Shown here piece by piece: positions 3,372-10,515 of a stretch of DNA of 64,000 bases. The translations under genes were made by a program, and so were the position numbers. How positions within the stretch are numbered: position 1 is the first letter of the stretch; each line of letters begins with the position of its first letter. The DNA is from an uncultured Ruminococcus sp. (GTDB taxonomy: Bacteria > Bacillota > Clostridia > Oscillospirales > Acutalibacteraceae), in assembly GCA_905233145.1 (NCBI GenBank), contig CAJODI010000017.1, positions 15,599 to 79,598 on the forward strand, written 5' to 3'. The notes beneath the pieces were generated by a model. It did no database searches. It was given only the letters and a program-made list of their open reading frames with translations, and had not been told where the DNA came from.

Positions 3372-3400
3372 TTGACTAAAACAGTGTTTTGTGTTATACT
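3372..3400 (+). promoter_or_regulatory. sigmaA promoter of the cobalamin operon
   Basis: TTGACT(3372-77), 17 nt, TATACT(3395-3400), with TGn extension. Confidence 0.75.
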
Positions 3401-3429
3401 GTTTTTATCGTGTATACGTATGCGAAAAA

Positions 3430-3662
3430 AACAATCAGGTTACGCGTTCCGGCGAATTTCGTCGGGTAATAGAGAATTCGGTGAGAATCCGAAGCAACTG
3501 TCATTACTGTATTTGACGAAGCTTTAACTATAGGCAATACTGCATAATTCGGGTGTGTGGATTGTGCAGTCTGACGGAATAATATGCAAGCAAGATGTGC
3601 GCCGCGAATTGTGCGGTGTTGCCTATACTTTGTCATAAGTCAGATCGCTTCCGCGTAGTCTT
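3430..3662 (+). ncRNA. Cobalamin riboswitch (interrupted by a MITE in P6)
   Basis: Conserved blocks in the correct order: CAGGT(3436), TAATAGAGAA-ttc-GGTGAGAATCC, CAACTGTCATTACTGTA, then AAGTCAGA(3637). TACGCG(3441-46) pairs with CGCGTA(3652-57); TGACGAAG(3514-21) pairs with CTTTGTCA(3628-35). TTTCCTGT(3726-33) can sequester the RBS ACAGGAGGA(3765-73). Lies upstream of a CbrT-like ECF transporter. Confidence 0.85.
3529..3627. mobile_element. MITE family 1, copy A (inside the riboswitch)
   Basis: TATA|GGCAATACTGCATAATTC...GAATTGTGCGGTGTTGCC|TATA; 91-bp core with internal modules shared with copies at 10.5, 29.8 and 32.7 kb. Confidence 0.85.
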
Positions 3663-3777
3663 GGATTTGCATTCTTGGACAAGAAGAAGCGCAGCCAACA
3701 TTTGTTCCCGTTTTTACGGGCTTGTTTTCCTGTGTTTTCTTTCTGAAAAAGGCATTAAGCCAAAACAGGAGGATTTT

Positions 3778-4770
3778 ATGAAAACTTACGCAAAACTCAC
3801 TTCATCCGTGCTTGCCGCCGTTATGCTTGCGGCAGCTCCGCTCACCGTTGCTTATGCTGCAGAGGACAATGCTCCCGGCACGGTGAGAGTAATTGTCAGA
3901 AATGATGTTTTTTCCGCTCAAAACGGTGCGGATTGGGACGGAATTCTGATTGACGAAATTGTAAGCCTTGACAGCAATGACTCAGTAACTTCGGTTATGA
4001 AAGGTGTTTTTGAAGCGCGAAAAATGGAATATACATTTTCCGACAGCTACAAATACTTCCAAAGCGTAAACGGTCTGGACGAATATGAAAATAATGGTTC
4101 CGGAGGCTGGATGATCACGCTCAACGACTGGTTCACGGCTCAGGGTACAGACGCTTATACCGTTCAAAACGGAAAGCTAAAGGACGGAGACGAGCTTTGT
4201 ATGCAGTACAGCTGCTCATGGGGCGCGGATATTTCGAGCATGTGGAGCGACTCAACAACAACTCTCAGCTCGCTTGAAGTTTCCGGAGCGCAGCTTGCAC
4301 CGGAGTTTTCTGCCGATAAAAAGGAATATACTTTAAATATTGATTTGGATACCGCTGAAATTCAGCTTACTCCGACAGCGTATAATAAGAATTTTCAGGT
4401 TAAAATATATAAAAACGAATATACCCCCGAAAGCTATGGCTCAGAGCTTATCAAAAGCAGAAGCTTTGAGGTTAAAGACGGAGACTCTGTTTATATCGGA
4501 GTTGCAAATCCGAATTGGGAAACCATGAATTCCATGCCTTACGAAGAGACAGTTTACAAGTTTGCCGTAAGCTCTGTGAAACCGGTAAAATTCGATGTAA
4601 ACGGAGACGGAGCTTTTGATATTAACGACGCTACAGCGATTCAATTTCACCTTGCAAAGCTCGATACTTTGAGTGAAAACGGTCTTATAGCAGCCGATGC
4701 AAACGAAGACGGCGATGTTGATATAAATGATGTAACATATCTTCAAATGCTTCTTGCAAAGCTTCTGTGA
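3778..4770 (+). CDS. Secreted DUF4430 (transcobalamin C-terminal-like) + cadherin-like beta-sandwich + dockerin protein
   Basis: Start at ATG 3778 after the GGAGG RBS (the ORF-track start at 3595 reads through the riboswitch). Signal peptide MKTYAKLTSSVLAAVMLAAAPLTVAYA; DUF4430-like YFQSVNGLDEYENNGSGGWMITLNDWF...LKDGDELCMQYS; TTLSSLEVSG...FSADKKEYTL; duplicated dockerin DVNGDGAFDINDATAIQ / DANEDGDVDINDVTYLQ. Confidence 0.8.
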   Translation: MKTYAKLTSSVLAAVMLAAAPLTVAYAAEDNAPGTVRVIVRNDVFSAQNGADWDGILIDEIVSLDSNDSVTSVMKGVFEARKMEYTFSDSYKYFQSVNGLDEYENNGSGGWMITLNDWFTAQGTDAYTVQNGKLKDGDELCMQYSCSWGADISSMWSDSTTTLSSLEVSGAQLAPEFSADKKEYTLNIDLDTAEIQLTPTAYNKNFQVKIYKNEYTPESYGSELIKSRSFEVKDGDSVYIGVANPNWETMNSMPYEETVYKFAVSSVKPVKFDVNGDGAFDINDATAIQFHLAKLDTLSENGLIAADANEDGDVDINDVTYLQMLLAKLL

Positions 4771-5924
4771 TGAATAAGAAGTCTTTCGCTTTTGCAATTC
4801 GGCAGACAATAATATGCCTTTTGGTTTTTGCGCAAATATCAGGCGTAACAGTCTTTGCGGCCGATTATGATTCAGTCAACTCAAAGTATCTCTCAACAGG
4901 CAGCTATCTTTCTTCGCTTCCTGCGCCAACATTAGGCTCAATAGGCGGCGAATGGCTTGCGCTCGGACTTGCGCGCTCTTCTTTTATGTCTGAGCAAACT
5001 GCTGAAGCATATTACCAAAACGTTGTTAATACGGTAAAAGCAATTGGCAAGCCTCAGCTTCACAGAGCAAAGTCAACCGAGAATTCAAGAGTTGTGCTTG
5101 CGCTGACTTCTATCGGAAAAGATGTTACCAACGTCGCAGGTTACAATTTACTTGAACCGCTTGCAGACTTTAGCTTTCTAAAAAAGCAGGGAATCAATGG
5201 CTCTGTTTGGGCGTTAATTGCTTTTGACTGCAACAACTACAAAATTCCGGATATCAATTACGGTAAGCAGGTTACAAGAGAAGCTTTGATTGACTATATT
5301 CTTGACGCTCAGCTTCCGGACGGCGGCTGGTCAATTGCAGAAACCGACCCGTCGGCTGACGATATGACCGCAATGGCGGTTCAGTCGCTTGCTCCGTACT
5401 ACAACATCCTGCCCGATGTAAGAGCAGCTGTAAACAGGGCTTTGGGGCTTTTTCCGAATATGTTTAAAGACAGCACTCCCGAAACCTGCGCTCAGCAGAT
5501 GGTTGCACTGACAAGTCTTGGAATTGATCCGCAGAACGAAAGCTTTTTGTACGGCGGTAAGAGTGTGATAGATGAAATGATGCGCTGCTCTGTCAATAAC
5601 GGTTTTTCGCACTTTCCGGGAGATGAATATGACCAAATGTCAACCGAACAGGCTTTTTACGCGCTGACCTCGGTTAAAAGGCTGCACGAGAAAAAAACAG
5701 GTCTGTATGATATGACAGATGTTTTTGCCGGCAGCGACGATTTATATGACGTCAATCTTGATGCTTACTTTGATATAAACGACTGCACAGCAATTCAAAA
5801 GCAGCTTGCAAGACTTGACACCTTGCCATTGCTCGGGTTAAAAAAATCCGACGCCAACCGTGACAGAGAAATTGACATTTCCGACGTTACGTTTCTGCAA
5901 AAGAAGTTGGCTAAAATTATTTGA
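4767..5924 (+). CDS. Secreted alpha/alpha-barrel (prenyltransferase/squalene-oxidase-repeat-like) protein with C-terminal dockerin
   Basis: Signal peptide ending VFA|ADY; GGEWLALGLAR, QLPDGGWS, DMTAMAVQSLAPY and STEQAFYAL repeats; dockerin DVNLDAYFDINDCTAIQ / DANRDREIDISDVTFLQ. GTGA/ATG overlap with the upstream gene. Confidence 0.75.
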   Translation: MMNKKSFAFAIRQTIICLLVFAQISGVTVFAADYDSVNSKYLSTGSYLSSLPAPTLGSIGGEWLALGLARSSFMSEQTAEAYYQNVVNTVKAIGKPQLHRAKSTENSRVVLALTSIGKDVTNVAGYNLLEPLADFSFLKKQGINGSVWALIAFDCNNYKIPDINYGKQVTREALIDYILDAQLPDGGWSIAETDPSADDMTAMAVQSLAPYYNILPDVRAAVNRALGLFPNMFKDSTPETCAQQMVALTSLGIDPQNESFLYGGKSVIDEMMRCSVNNGFSHFPGDEYDQMSTEQAFYALTSVKRLHEKKTGLYDMTDVFAGSDDLYDVNLDAYFDINDCTAIQKQLARLDTLPLLGLKKSDANRDREIDISDVTFLQKKLAKII

Positions 5925-5936
5925 GGTTGATTATAA

Positions 5937-6887
5937 ATGCAAAAGCTAATTGCTATTTACAAAAGAAACAAAGTTTATTGTATTATCGGTTTGGTTTCTG
6001 CGATTATTCTCGCACTGACTCTTATTTTCGGCGATAATGCTCCTCACCTGACAGGTAACGTTGTGACGATTGATACAATTGCCAACGCTACTTATGACGA
6101 AGCGGCTCTCAGAAAGCAGCAGCCGACTACGACTCAAAGCGGCATTTTTAACTTTTTCCCGGTAAATAACGACAATAACAATAACAACAATCAAAGCAAC
6201 GATAGCAACAATCCAAATAATTCATCCTCAGTTTCAAATAATAATTCAGGCACACAGCCCACCGACAGCTATCATTTTGTTATGTCTAACGACAGTGTGC
6301 ATGTAAACCCTAACCTTGACTCTATCATTAAGCGTCTTGCCGATGATTTGAAAAATCAAACGACCGTTCCTGCAACTACGAAAAACGACAAGGATAAGGA
6401 CAAGGATAAAGACGAAACTCCGACCAAAAGCCGAACAGATTCAGAGGAGGAAGCAACAGAAGCACGCGAGGAAGAAGATAAGACACTCACCTGTACGATC
6501 TCTATTTCGTGCGCAACAGCCCTCAGCAACAAAGATAAGCTTGACGAGGACAAGGCTGAGCTGATTCCGGCGGACGGTTGGATTCTCAAGCCGGTTACGG
6601 TTGAGTTTACAAATGGTGAAGATCTCGGCGAGGTCATGACACGCGTTTGCAGAGATAACGGAATTCACTTTGAATACACCTTTAATCCGCTTTACAATTC
6701 AAACTATGCAGAGGGAATTGGCAATTTGTATGAGTTTGACTGCGGCTCCGAATCCGGCTGGATGTATAGTGTAAACGGTTGGTATCCTAACTACGGCTAT
6801 TCGCGCTATGAGCTCAAAAATAATGATAACGTCGAATGGAAGTATACTTGCAGCCTGGGTAGGGATATCGGCGGAAGTAATTATTAA
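5937..6887 (+). CDS. Membrane-anchored DUF4430 protein with long low-complexity linker
   Basis: N-terminal TM (YCIIGLVSAIILALTLIFG), N/S/T/D/K/E-rich linker, C-terminal YAEGIGNLYEFDCGSESGWMYSVNGWYPNYG...WKYTC. Confidence 0.85.
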   Translation: MQKLIAIYKRNKVYCIIGLVSAIILALTLIFGDNAPHLTGNVVTIDTIANATYDEAALRKQQPTTTQSGIFNFFPVNNDNNNNNNQSNDSNNPNNSSSVSNNNSGTQPTDSYHFVMSNDSVHVNPNLDSIIKRLADDLKNQTTVPATTKNDKDKDKDKDETPTKSRTDSEEEATEAREEEDKTLTCTISISCATALSNKDKLDEDKAELIPADGWILKPVTVEFTNGEDLGEVMTRVCRDNGIHFEYTFNPLYNSNYAEGIGNLYEFDCGSESGWMYSVNGWYPNYGYSRYELKNNDNVEWKYTCSLGRDIGGSNY

Positions 6888-6909
6888 AGTATTGCCTTAA
6901 TAAAACATT

Positions 6910-6951
6910 AAAAGGAATCGCTGATTAAGCGTAATCGGCGGTTCCTTTTTT
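6910..6951 (+). terminator. Intra-operon hairpin / intrinsic terminator
   Basis: AAAAGGAATCGCTGATTA-AGCG-TAATCGGCGGTTCCTTTT followed by TT. Confidence 0.7.
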
Positions 6952-7012
6952 ATCTGAGATTAGATGAGATCAGTCTGATAAAACATTAAATAGTATTAGC
7001 AGGTTTATTATT

Positions 7013-7903
7013 ATGAAAGATTCTTTTTCAAGGCTGCACCCCGTTGTGTGCTTCTTTTTTTATATATCTGTAATTCTTTTTACAATGCTCGAAAACAATC
7101 CTTTTTGTTTATGCATTTCGCTTGTATGCGCCTTTGTAAACGCAATTACCTTAAACGGTAAAAAAACGCTTGCGCTTACCGTAAAATATCTTTTTCCTAT
7201 GATGCTCATGGTAATAATTATTAATCCTCTGTTCAATCATTCGGGTGCGACGATTCTTAACTATCTTCCGTGGGGCAATCCTTTGACTCTGGAGTCGGTA
7301 TTGTACGGATTTTTTGCCGCAGCACTGTTGTGTTCGGTGGTTTTGTGGTTTTCATCGTTTCACAAGGTTATGACGACTGATAAGCTGGTATATCTTTTTG
7401 GCAGACTTTCTCCGGCGTTAAGCCTTTTGCTTTCTATGTCGTTCAGGCTTGTTCCAAAGCTTTCTTCTCAAACAAAAGAGGTTAGGGATTCTCAAAGAGC
7501 TTTGGGACGAGATCTTTCAAAGGGTTCTATTTTCACAAGACTGAAAACGGCGATAAAAATAATTTCCGTGATGATAACGCGCGTTCTCGAAGATTCTGTA
7601 GAAACGGCGGATTCTATGAAAAGCAGGGGATACGGCTTAAAGGGCAGGACTGCATTTTCGCTGTATTCCTTTAGACAGCGCGATTTTGCTGTAATGTCTG
7701 CAATTGTAATTATGTCTTTAGTTATGATAGCGTTAAAGCTTTGTCATGCTGTAGATTTTAGATTTTTTCCGTCGGTAAAGAGCGGAGAGTTGACAGCAGA
7801 AGCTGTGCTATGCTGCGTAGTTTACTCGTTACTAATGCTTTTGCCGATTATGATTAACATATGGGAGGGGATAAAATGGAAGCGATTACAGTCAGCAATC
7901 TAA
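7013..7903 (+). CDS. ecfT: ECF transporter transmembrane T component
   Basis: LHPVV N-terminus, multiple TMs, coupling helices RLVPKL...SQRALG and ADSMKSRGYG. Confidence 0.9.
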   Translation: MKDSFSRLHPVVCFFFYISVILFTMLENNPFCLCISLVCAFVNAITLNGKKTLALTVKYLFPMMLMVIIINPLFNHSGATILNYLPWGNPLTLESVLYGFFAAALLCSVVLWFSSFHKVMTTDKLVYLFGRLSPALSLLLSMSFRLVPKLSSQTKEVRDSQRALGRDLSKGSIFTRLKTAIKIISVMITRVLEDSVETADSMKSRGYGLKGRTAFSLYSFRQRDFAVMSAIVIMSLVMIALKLCHAVDFRFFPSVKSGELTAEAVLCCVVYSLLMLLPIMINIWEGIKWKRLQSAI

Positions 7904-10515
7904 GCTTTATTTATCCTGAAGAAACGCAGCCGGCGATAGAAAATGCTTCATTTTCGATTAACAGCGGTGAATTTGTCACCCTTTACGGACGTTCCGGAAG
8001 CGGAAAAACAACTCTTCTGAGACTATTAAAGCCTTCGCTGGCTCCGCACGGCAACAAAAGCGGAAAGGTGTTTTTTTTCGGAAAGGATATCTGTGTGCTT
8101 GATCACAGAGAAGAATCCCAGAGAATCGGTTTTGTTCAACAGTCCCCGGAAAATCAAATTGTAACCGACAAGGTTTGGCACGAGCTTGCGTTCGGGCTTG
8201 AAAATTTGGGACTTGATAACAGCGTTATTCGCAGAAAAGTTGCCGAAACCGCTGCGTTTTTTGGAATTGAGCAATGGTTTGAAAAATCCGTTTTTGAGCT
8301 TTCGGGCGGTCAAAAGCAGATACTAAGTCTCGCTTCAATTATGGCAATGCAGCCTGACATACTAATACTTGACGAGCCTGCAAGCAGACTGGATCCCATT
8401 GCGTCAGAGGAATTTTTCGGCTGTCTTTCAAAAATCAACCGGGAGCTCGGAATAACGGTTATCATCACAGAACACAAGCTTGATGAGCTTTTGCCGCTGA
8501 GTAATCGGATTTTGGTTATTGACAAGGGAAAAATAATTTGTGATTCAAATCCGCGTGAGCTTGGTAAAATCATAAATAAGTGTCGGTGGGCGTCCTGCGG
8601 CGGATTATTTCTTTCAATGCCTGCACCGGTCAAAATCTGGAATGCTGTTGACGGAACAGGGCAGTGTCCGCTTACAGTTGCAGAGGGCAGACAATGGCTT
8701 GAACAGTTTTCGAAAAATAATTCTTTCAGAGAACTAAATCCTAAGCCAAAGCGTGAGTGCACAGATATTGCAGTAAGTCTGAAAAATATATATTATAGAT
8801 ATGAAAAAGATTCCGGTGATGTTATAAAAGATTTGAGCCTTGATTTCAGAGAAGGAGAATTCACCGCTGTTTTAGGCGGAAACGGCGCGGGAAAAACCAC
8901 TTTGCTTTCTGTTATCAGCGGGATTAACAAGCCGTATTCGGGAACGGTCAGATGCTTCCGCAGGGTTGGCTTTCTTCCTCAAAATCCACACAGCCTTTTC
9001 TTAAAAAACACCGTTTACGAGGATTTATGCGAGGTTTTTGACGGTTCAGGTATACCTAAGGAAGAAACCAATCGCCGAGTAACCTCAATTGCCTCGCTAT
9101 GTAAGCTTAACAGCCTTTTGAACAGACATCCTTTTGATTTATCCGGCGGTGAACAGCAACGCGCTGCATTGGCAAAGGTTATGCTACTCAGCCCCGAAGT
9201 TCTTTTGCTTGACGAACCGACAAAGGGCTTTGACGCCGAATTTAAGCTTGTTTTTGCCGAAATAATACAAAGACTCACTGCTTCCGGAGTTACGGTGATA
9301 ATGGTAAGCCACGATGTTGAATTCTGCGCGGCTCACGCGCACAATTGCGTAATGCTTTTTAACGGTGACGCTGTTTCTTCGGGAAGTCCCGGGGAGTTTT
9401 TCAACTCAAACAGCTTTTATTCAACTTCGGCTAACAGAATGTCAAAAGGGATAATCAACGGTGCTATAACAGCCGAAGACGTGATTTACTGCTGCAATGT
9501 TGATTTACCTGACAATATACAAGGTGACACGGAAAAGATACAGTCTTTTGTGTTGCCTAAAGAAATAAAAAAAACAGACCGGAACAAGAATAATTCAAAA
9601 CAACTTTCTCCGATAAAAAAAGTGCTGGGAATAATAAGCGTCGCAATGCTTATTGCCGGAGTTTTTATTAATCTTGATATATTTGGGATGTTCGACATCA
9701 GTGAAAGCTATATACCAATTAACATTTTACTTATTGCGTTGCCGATTGTTTTGCTGATGTTTTCATTTGGAGCCTTTTCAAAATCAGAAAGCGTGGGAAT
9801 TGATGTTTCTGAAAAAACAAAATTGCGAAAAAGAACTATATTCGCGGCTGTTATGATAGTTCTCGCCATTCCTCTTACTATCTTTTTTGGAATTAACTTT
9901 CTAAACGATGAGAAATACATATTTATTTCGTTGCTTGTTATGCTCGAGGCTTCTTTGCCGTTTTTCTTGATCTTTGAGGACAGAAAACCACAGGCCAGGG
10001 AACTGGTTATCTTGTCTGCGCTTTGCGCGATCGCGGTTGCCGGAAGAGCTGCATTTTATATGCTTCCGATGTTTAAGCCTGTTTTAGCGGTTGTGATTAT
10101 TACAGGCGTAGCCTTTGGAGGTGAATCAGGATTTATTGTTGGAGCAATGACAATGCTGCTTTCTAATGTGTTTTTTGGTCAGGGTCCTTGGACGCCGTGG
10201 CAGATGTTTGCCGCCGGAATAATCGGCTTTTTGGCAGGGGTACTGTTCAAAAAGGGTTTTCTGAGCAGAAACAGGGGATCACTTTGTGTTTTCGGATTTG
10301 TCGCTACAATGATTATTTACGGACCGATTATGAACTTTGCGTCGTTTATAATGACTCGTTCGCCCTGGGATTCCAAAATAATAGCTTCGTTTTTTATTCA
10401 GGGCTTTCCGATGGATTTGATTCACGCTTTTTCAACGCTTGTTTTTCTGTTTTTTGCCGCAGAGCCTATGCTCGAAAAGCTTGACAGAATCAAAGTTAAA
10501 TACGGTTTATATTAA
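7876..10515 (+). CDS. Fused ECF ATPase A-A' plus CbrT-like S component
   Basis: Start at ATG 7876 after GGAGGGG. Two ABC domains (GRSGSGKTT/LSGGQKQ/ILDEP; GGNGAGKTT/LSGGEQQR/LLDEP), an extra TM pair, then an S component with KPVLAVVIITG...FFGQGPWTPWQM. Confidence 0.88.
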   Translation: MEAITVSNLSFIYPEETQPAIENASFSINSGEFVTLYGRSGSGKTTLLRLLKPSLAPHGNKSGKVFFFGKDICVLDHREESQRIGFVQQSPENQIVTDKVWHELAFGLENLGLDNSVIRRKVAETAAFFGIEQWFEKSVFELSGGQKQILSLASIMAMQPDILILDEPASRLDPIASEEFFGCLSKINRELGITVIITEHKLDELLPLSNRILVIDKGKIICDSNPRELGKIINKCRWASCGGLFLSMPAPVKIWNAVDGTGQCPLTVAEGRQWLEQFSKNNSFRELNPKPKRECTDIAVSLKNIYYRYEKDSGDVIKDLSLDFREGEFTAVLGGNGAGKTTLLSVISGINKPYSGTVRCFRRVGFLPQNPHSLFLKNTVYEDLCEVFDGSGIPKEETNRRVTSIASLCKLNSLLNRHPFDLSGGEQQRAALAKVMLLSPEVLLLDEPTKGFDAEFKLVFAEIIQRLTASGVTVIMVSHDVEFCAAHAHNCVMLFNGDAVSSGSPGEFFNSNSFYSTSANRMSKGIINGAITAEDVIYCCNVDLPDNIQGDTEKIQSFVLPKEIKKTDRNKNNSKQLSPIKKVLGIISVAMLIAGVFINLDIFGMFDISESYIPINILLIALPIVLLMFSFGAFSKSESVGIDVSEKTKLRKRTIFAAVMIVLAIPLTIFFGINFLNDEKYIFISLLVMLEASLPFFLIFEDRKPQARELVILSALCAIAVAGRAAFYMLPMFKPVLAVVIITGVAFGGESGFIVGAMTMLLSNVFFGQGPWTPWQMFAAGIIGFLAGVLFKKGFLSRNRGSLCVFGFVATMIIYGPIMNFASFIMTRSPWDSKIIASFFIQGFPMDLIHAFSTLVFLFFAAEPMLEKLDRIKVKYGLY

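Follow-up and report, generated by a model that had tools for sequence, protein, structure and literature searches.

A MITE at the tip of the P6 arm of a cobalamin riboswitch in an uncultured Ruminococcus sp., probably a tolerated passenger

The leader of a corrinoid-uptake operon in an uncultured Ruminococcus sp. harbours a cobalamin riboswitch into whose P6 arm a 91-bp MITE has been inserted at the tip. The window referred to throughout is the whole stretch of DNA that was analysed, 64,000 nucleotides in length. We hold it to be virtually certain that the insertion is real, restricted to one lineage and located in a permissive hairpin tip. With regard to its consequences, we infer, largely from modelled folds, that the riboswitch still responds to its ligand and carries the element as a passenger, a reading we consider reasonably probable. 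The sister species possesses the same aptamer without the 99-nt hairpin, and the two species together thus constitute a clean natural experiment on the tolerance of an aptamer for foreign structure, located before an operon that the B12-dependent host apparently cannot lose.

All features of the leader reside on the plus strand. The promoter (3372-3400) comprises TTGACT, a 17-nt spacer and a TG-extended TATACT, scores 10 of 12 matches and is conserved in the sister species (G140) as well as in a metagenome strain (L085). The 5' half of the aptamer (3436-3521) was delineated by RF00174 alignments and folds, and is identical to that of the sister species from 3433 to 3517; it includes the 5' strand of P1 (3436-3446), the P2 hairpin (3449-3465), P4 (3477-3493), the L5 loop UGUC around 3499-3502 and the CUG of P6 (3507-3509). 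The 3' half (3628-3664) was placed by folds and by the alignment of the sister leader to RF00174, and identity to the sister extends from 3628 to 3704; it contains the B12 box AGUCAG (3638-3643), within which lies the CAG of P6 (3641-3643), and the 3' strand of P1 (3652-3664). Downstream, the alignment identifies the GGAC loop L13 of the P13 hairpin (3672-3685) as the kissing-loop partner of L5. A terminator-like hairpin, CCCGT/ACGGG (3707-3720), is followed by a U-rich tail, the whole spanning 3707-3730 with predicted pair probabilities of 0.95-1.0. A further helix, in which UCUUUCUG is predicted to pair with the Shine-Dalgarno region CAGGAGGA (3738-3773; pair probability ~0.85), makes translational control a possible second output of the leader besides the terminator. 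In more distant relatives the second hairpin differs (GUGCUUUCC...GGAAAGCAUUUUU).

The conserved core is present, as judged from covariance-model alignments, predicted helices and identity to the sister species: P1, the P3-P6 junction, L4 (GGUGAGAAUCC) and the B12 box. The leader shares with other cobalamin riboswitches (RF00174) the arrangement of P1-P6 around a four-way junction, a T-loop-like L4, the B12 box AGUCAG, a covarying L5-L13 pair, a terminator and corrinoid-uptake genes downstream, and differs from them in the 99-nt transposon-derived hairpin mounted on the apical hairpin of P6. The L5-L13 interaction, which is found in all cobalamin riboswitch classes (PMC7367189), reads GUC/GAC in five species and GCC/GGC in three, as scored by eye in an alignment of eight species, and the terminator stem covaries in the sister species and in two further lineages (L054 and L055). 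Logan unitigs of these two lineages both start exactly at TGCATTCTTGGACAAGAAGAAGCGCAGCC, the P13 block (window 3669-3696), a coincidence that may derive from graph branching between strains in the samples. The architecture, which comprises P1, a P2 hairpin and P3-P6 and in which the P6 extension is very short, with ~60 model positions deleted there, resembles the 'hybrid' type of Bacillus subtilis yvrC, which likewise combines a short P6 with a P2 module (PMC7367189). The invaded apical hairpin is this short P6 extension, denoted P7 in the B. subtilis yvrC numbering. In Cbl-II and yvrC-type switches the short P6 extension points away from the core and the ligand pocket, and P7 of yvrC contributes nothing to the binding site (PMC7367189).

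The anatomy of the insertion can be read directly from the letters. The two strands of the apical helix, TGACGAAG (3514-3521) and CTTTGTCA (3628-3635), form eight pairs, one of them a G-U. Between them lie CTTTAAC (3522-3528), seven nucleotides left over from the old apical loop that now bulge out where the apical helix of P6 meets the hairpin of the MITE; the left copy of the target-site duplication, TATA (3529-3532); the 91-bp core (3533-3623), which runs from GGCAATACTGCATAATTC to GAATTGTGCGGTGTTGCC (GGCAAT...GTTGCC); and the perfectly matching right copy of TATA (3624-3627). The arms of the core constitute a 26-nt inverted repeat with 85% complementarity, and the core is predicted to form a single long hairpin in the transcript. 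The insertion point lies towards the 3' end of what was an 11-nt apical loop. The initial annotation had placed a TATA-flanked MITE at the end of the P6 stem, and its coordinates hold to the base; its description of the element as lying exactly between complementary strands is right in that both strands flank it, and needs amending in that CTTTAAC (3522-3528) still intervenes on the 5' side. A flanking stem of 8 bp is not in itself unusual, being found at ~5% of random TWWA sites in the host genome. The riboswitch copy stands out by near-private C>T changes at three positions (3541, 3558 and 3596), each occurring in at most 4 of ~132 copies, and all three maintain or improve pairing in the sense RNA (G-U, G-U and A-U). 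The insertion also creates a promoter-like site at its left junction (3513-3541), with a -35 element TTGACG (3513-3518) in the 5' strand of P6, a 17-nt spacer and a -10 element AATACT (3536-3541) in the left terminal inverted repeat; a mirror-image promoter-like site is present on the minus strand (3636-3608).

Empty-site alleles, to which the initial annotation had looked for a decision, are present in the sister species, in its metagenome strain and elsewhere in the genus. In the sister species the empty site TTTGACAAGGCTGCAAAATGCTTTGTCATAAG folds into a 9-bp stem with an 8-nt loop, and the same site is found in the JGI metagenome contig of strain L085, which is 98.4% identical to the sister. 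The first eight leaders of relatives that were compared all proved to be without the insert, and the site is empty in G140, L085, G020, G002 and others, with ~30 species of the genus lacking the insert besides the sister. Measured between two conserved blocks, CATTACYGT and ATAAGTCAG, the intervening segment spans 126 nt in the window versus 12-34 nt in ~30 species. Look-ups with exact proteins for an empty allele within the species itself returned only contigs that are 100% identical and bear the insert; the contigs of relatives at 85% and 75% begin downstream of the site, and the sole metagenome match is the sister species.

The position that was invaded is a variable one. An apical helix is present in 27 of 27 orthologous leaders, with stems of 3-9 bp, loops of 3-18 nt and 12 distinct stem sequences; this diversity indicates that the strands flanking the insert form a genuine helix, which covaries and the tip of which can vary freely. 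Two other species, G197 (L089:224-295) and G088 (L090:209-294), carry hairpin-like expansions of 72 and 86 nt, respectively, in the same apical loop of P6, TGGCAAA[...]TTTGCCA. These are related (72% identical) and have nothing in common with the MITE, and a third species (G200) preserves the empty form of their site, TGGCAAAtatTTTGCCA. We ruled out that the expansion is a dispersed repeat, as it is single-copy. Together with the MITE, it implies that the site has accepted large additions more than once, one of which has persisted across speciation.

The element itself belongs to a family that is abundant in the host genome (2.07 Mb in 128 contigs, with an estimated completeness of 100%). A BLAST search of this genome with the 99-bp query returned 56 matches, and a search with the terminal inverted repeat consensus GGCAAYACCGCAYAATT detected ~290 ends per orientation, which combine into 196 paired elements shorter than 400 bp. 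The four nucleotides on either side are identical in 132 of the 196, almost always of TWWA type (TTAA in 71, TATA in 18, TTTA in 17 and TAAA in 8), which points to a 4-bp TWWA target duplication family-wide. The ~200 copies range from 91 to 161 bp and fall into classes of 91, ~106, 117-150 and 160-161 bp, the last of which is the commonest. With terminal inverted repeats, target duplications, small dispersed copies and empty sites, the family is a MITE family, and the dispersed copies that the initial annotation had set beside the empty sites are thus amply present. No transposase reading frame was detected between paired terminal repeats in the host genome, pairs of IS size included, and no autonomous IS sharing these repeats was found in the host draft or in a complete relative (G151); draft genomes often lack assembled IS elements. 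The only DDE_Tnp_1 gene of the genome (C70:215-967) was rejected as an autonomous partner on account of its unrelated ends, and DUF772 found no support in this role in the host genome. Family members are also present in the sister species (at least 41 matches), in G020 and in G151, where all pairs measure 161 bp, and are absent from G002.

A 162-nt MITE-like element described from Eubacteriales and associated with DUF6783 (bioRxiv 10.1101/2024.01.18.576133) is similar to this family in host group and close to its commonest class (160-161 bp) in size. The 161-bp class has inverted-repeat symmetry and an open frame on either strand; its translations (loci such as C38:34001-34161, C63:10251-10411 and C17:93510-93670) match no Pfam family, DUF6783 included, and we therefore ruled out identity of the two. 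They also differ in that the present family makes clear 4-bp target duplications, whereas none were found for the DUF6783 element (bioRxiv 10.1101/2024.01.18.576133). Targeting of hairpin loops was likewise excluded as a habit of the family, with flanking stems of at least 8 bp at 4.5% of MITE sites versus 5.0% of random TWWA sites. Many contigs start ~90-100 nt inside a MITE copy (for example C9:93, C11:95, C12:98, C17:98 and C19:94), from which it follows that the family is a major cause of assembly breaks and that the count probably falls short of the real number of copies. Tandem copies with one TTAA between them occur at C86:9611-9771 and C61:12418-12569; the single TTAA suggests that the duplicated target of the first copy was reused by the next insertion.

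Thermodynamic folding supports the proposal that the riboswitch fold is preserved. Removal of the element from the leader leaves the minimum free energy structure unchanged everywhere outside the insert, and across the full leader (3408-3790) the pair probabilities of the outside helices shift by no more than 0.04, in a thermodynamic calculation that ignores co-transcriptional kinetics. On its own the MITE is predicted to fold into a self-contained hairpin of -47.4 kcal/mol with a duplex of 23 uninterrupted pairs. The P6 arm together with the MITE reaches -57.5 kcal/mol, compared to -34.5 ± 3.5 for shuffled sequences (z = -6.6). The predictions thus bear out the suggestion that the terminal repeats lengthen P6, with the element modelled as one long hairpin upon the apical helix.

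Comparison with the sister species adds an evolutionary dimension. The aptamer and platform (3433-3517 and 3628-3704; 162 nt) show no difference between window and sister, and every conserved block of the riboswitch is still in place to the left and right of the insert, just as the initial annotation had it. At fourfold degenerate sites of the two flanking genes 43% of positions differ (JC K ~0.64). This contrast proves that the switch has been under strong selection across both lineages taken jointly; it is no proof of selection since the insertion in particular. If the three near-private C>T changes arose after the insertion, the neutral expectation for the 162 nt is ~5 changes, with a probability of 0.005 of observing none; the dating provided by three private bases is weak, and an unsampled master copy could also be their source. 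As the available same-species contigs show no differences from one another, the insertion could be of very recent date.

The course of events that we favour is as follows. After the split from the sister species, a non-autonomous 91-bp MITE transposed into the A/T-rich loop that caps the apical hairpin of P6, duplicating TATA. In the leader RNA its inverted repeats would pair to give one long, self-contained hairpin, stacked upon the former 8-bp helix with the 7-nt bulge in between; the P6 arm would thereby gain ~50 bp, directed away from the four-way junction at which the ligand binds. None of P1-P6, the B12 box, the L5-L13 kissing loop or the terminator would be affected, and with abundant B12 the switch would most likely still repress the corrinoid-uptake operon. 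The initial annotation had called the insertion 'tolerated or domesticated', and the former is the better word: the insert occurs in one lineage only and the family displays no preference for hairpin loops, neither of which speaks for domestication. The idea that the insert could change corrinoid selectivity lacks support, as the short P6 extension points away from the ligand pocket (PMC7367189); by analogy, given the direction of the hairpin, altered selectivity is unlikely.

The operon under control of the switch (3778-10515, plus strand) has intact reading frames and encodes two dockerin proteins, the first with a DUF4430 domain, a DUF4430 protein, an EcfT-type CbiQ and a fused ATPase-ATPase-S component. 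The genes directly 3' of the riboswitch are B12-related, namely those for the DUF4430 proteins, for CbiQ/EcfT and for the fused ECF ATPase-S protein. Elsewhere the host genome encodes a four-domain MetH without an activation domain (C5:70758-71114 region), and neither MetE (PF01717) nor CbiC (PF02570) was detected in the whole genome at 100% estimated completeness. To judge from this gene content, the host is probably dependent on imported corrinoid and on B12-dependent methionine synthesis, and with a MetH but neither MetE nor CbiC the uptake operon can be expected to be important for the cell. Even with the switch constitutively ON, an essential operon would be retained.

This last point is of importance for the strongest competing explanation, that the insertion is disruptive and survivable: kinetic misfolding or cutting by RNase III would have rendered the operon constitutive or shifted its level, in an event that is recent and concerns an operon that is needed. 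We regard this as unlikely, though deserving of serious weight. The 99 additional nucleotides delay the closure of P6, P3 and P1; the 23 uninterrupted pairs make a plausible substrate for RNase III, the gene for which (rnc) is encoded in the host genome; and in Neisseria, transcribed Correia elements are bound by RNase III, with either cleavage or protection as the outcome (PMC2649163). The near-identity of the same-species sequences leaves little time for decay, and MetH without MetE or CbiC would ensure retention of the operon in any case. Set against these points are the absence of a single change in the 162 nt of aptamer and platform, and the predicted ensemble, which is unchanged outside the insert. 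Moreover, the same loop carries other large expansions that have persisted across two species, and the long-arm switches of Cbl-I type in the genus, inferred to be functional, accommodate 50-90 extra nt at the same position.

We attach little credence to a second alternative, according to which the MITE hairpin has been domesticated, that is, selected as a working part of the leader in a corrinoid-auxotrophic lineage. It could have become an RNase III processing site, an internal promoter that frees the genome's sole corrinoid-uptake operon in part from B12 sensing, or a lengthened P6 with altered selectivity, folding kinetics or stability. The private C>T at 3541 completes the -10-like hexamer at the left junction by providing its final T, and none of the three near-private changes weakens pairing in the sense RNA. 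However, a C>T change in a stem always yields G-U, and three such events are no proof; at 9 of 12 the promoter-like site is a weak one, and such matches are near chance, with 3 in the stretch versus 0.9 ± 1.0 expected. Both the pairing-preserving changes and the completed hexamer are compatible with chance. Furthermore, the insert is confined to one lineage and absent from the sister and ~30 other species, and the apical hairpin of a yvrC-type switch lies outside the binding site (PMC7367189). An assembly artefact, in the form of a chimeric join via the repeat in a 128-contig draft genome with many contig breaks inside MITE copies, is exceedingly improbable in view of the perfect target duplication, an independent ENA contig that is 100% identical across 6 kb without any difference in the 414-bp intergenic region, and Logan unitigs of a different run that separately cross the left and the right junction and include the private bases of the riboswitch copy.

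A full-text literature search retrieved no published example of a MITE inside a single riboswitch aptamer. Intervening sequences (IVS) in bacterial 23S rRNA are extra hairpins at the tips of peripheral helices, tolerated because the tip is solvent-exposed; they are cut out by RNase III and the rRNA fragments are held together in the ribosome. The riboswitch MITE resembles them in adding a hairpin to the outer end of a peripheral helix. Among published cases, the nearest is a BOX element located between two T-box riboswitches in the trp leader of Streptococcus pneumoniae, where regulation appears to survive according to RNA-seq (PMC3049150). It is likewise a small hairpin-forming repeat that is co-transcribed in a riboswitch leader, but lies between two complete aptamers, whereas the MITE resides inside one and splits it into 5' and 3' halves. 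Correia elements (CREE/NEMIS) of Neisseria are MITEs of ~100-150 bp with terminal inverted repeats and A/T-rich duplications that form long RNA hairpins; they are co-transcribed, are possible RNase III substrates, and promoters can arise at their ends (PMC2649163). They have no sequence relation to the riboswitch MITE, are found in a different host phylum and duplicate TA instead of a 4-bp TWWA target, and the RNase III and promoter effects are a trait of Correia elements (PMC2649163) and only candidate effects for the riboswitch MITE.

A more practical consequence of the insertion concerns annotation. At gathering cutoffs, a search of the window against Rfam yields no hits. In E-value mode the leader scores 28.2 bits against RF00174, with its 3' half misaligned into the right arm of the MITE, compared to 33.7 bits for the sister leader, which is identical except at the P6 tip and served as a stand-in for the window leader devoid of the MITE. 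The gathering cutoff of 31.5 bits falls between the two, and the predicted weakening of the covariance-model score is thereby borne out; orthologous leaders of other species in the genus lie above the cutoff (33.2-48.9 bits). The MITE-bearing leader is the only cobalamin riboswitch candidate that the RF00174 search identified in the host genome, which on Rfam annotation alone would be counted as free of such riboswitches. By pushing riboswitches below cutoffs, inserts of this type may lead to undercounts when B12 regulation is surveyed among Firmicutes of the gut and rumen. In the genus-wide RF00174 search, 101 of the 102 genomes with a match contain one riboswitch each, and these riboswitches split into a long, Cbl-I-like type of 70-101 bits and a short type of 23-49 bits; the latter often falls below the Rfam cutoff even without an insert and is thus systematically under-annotated.
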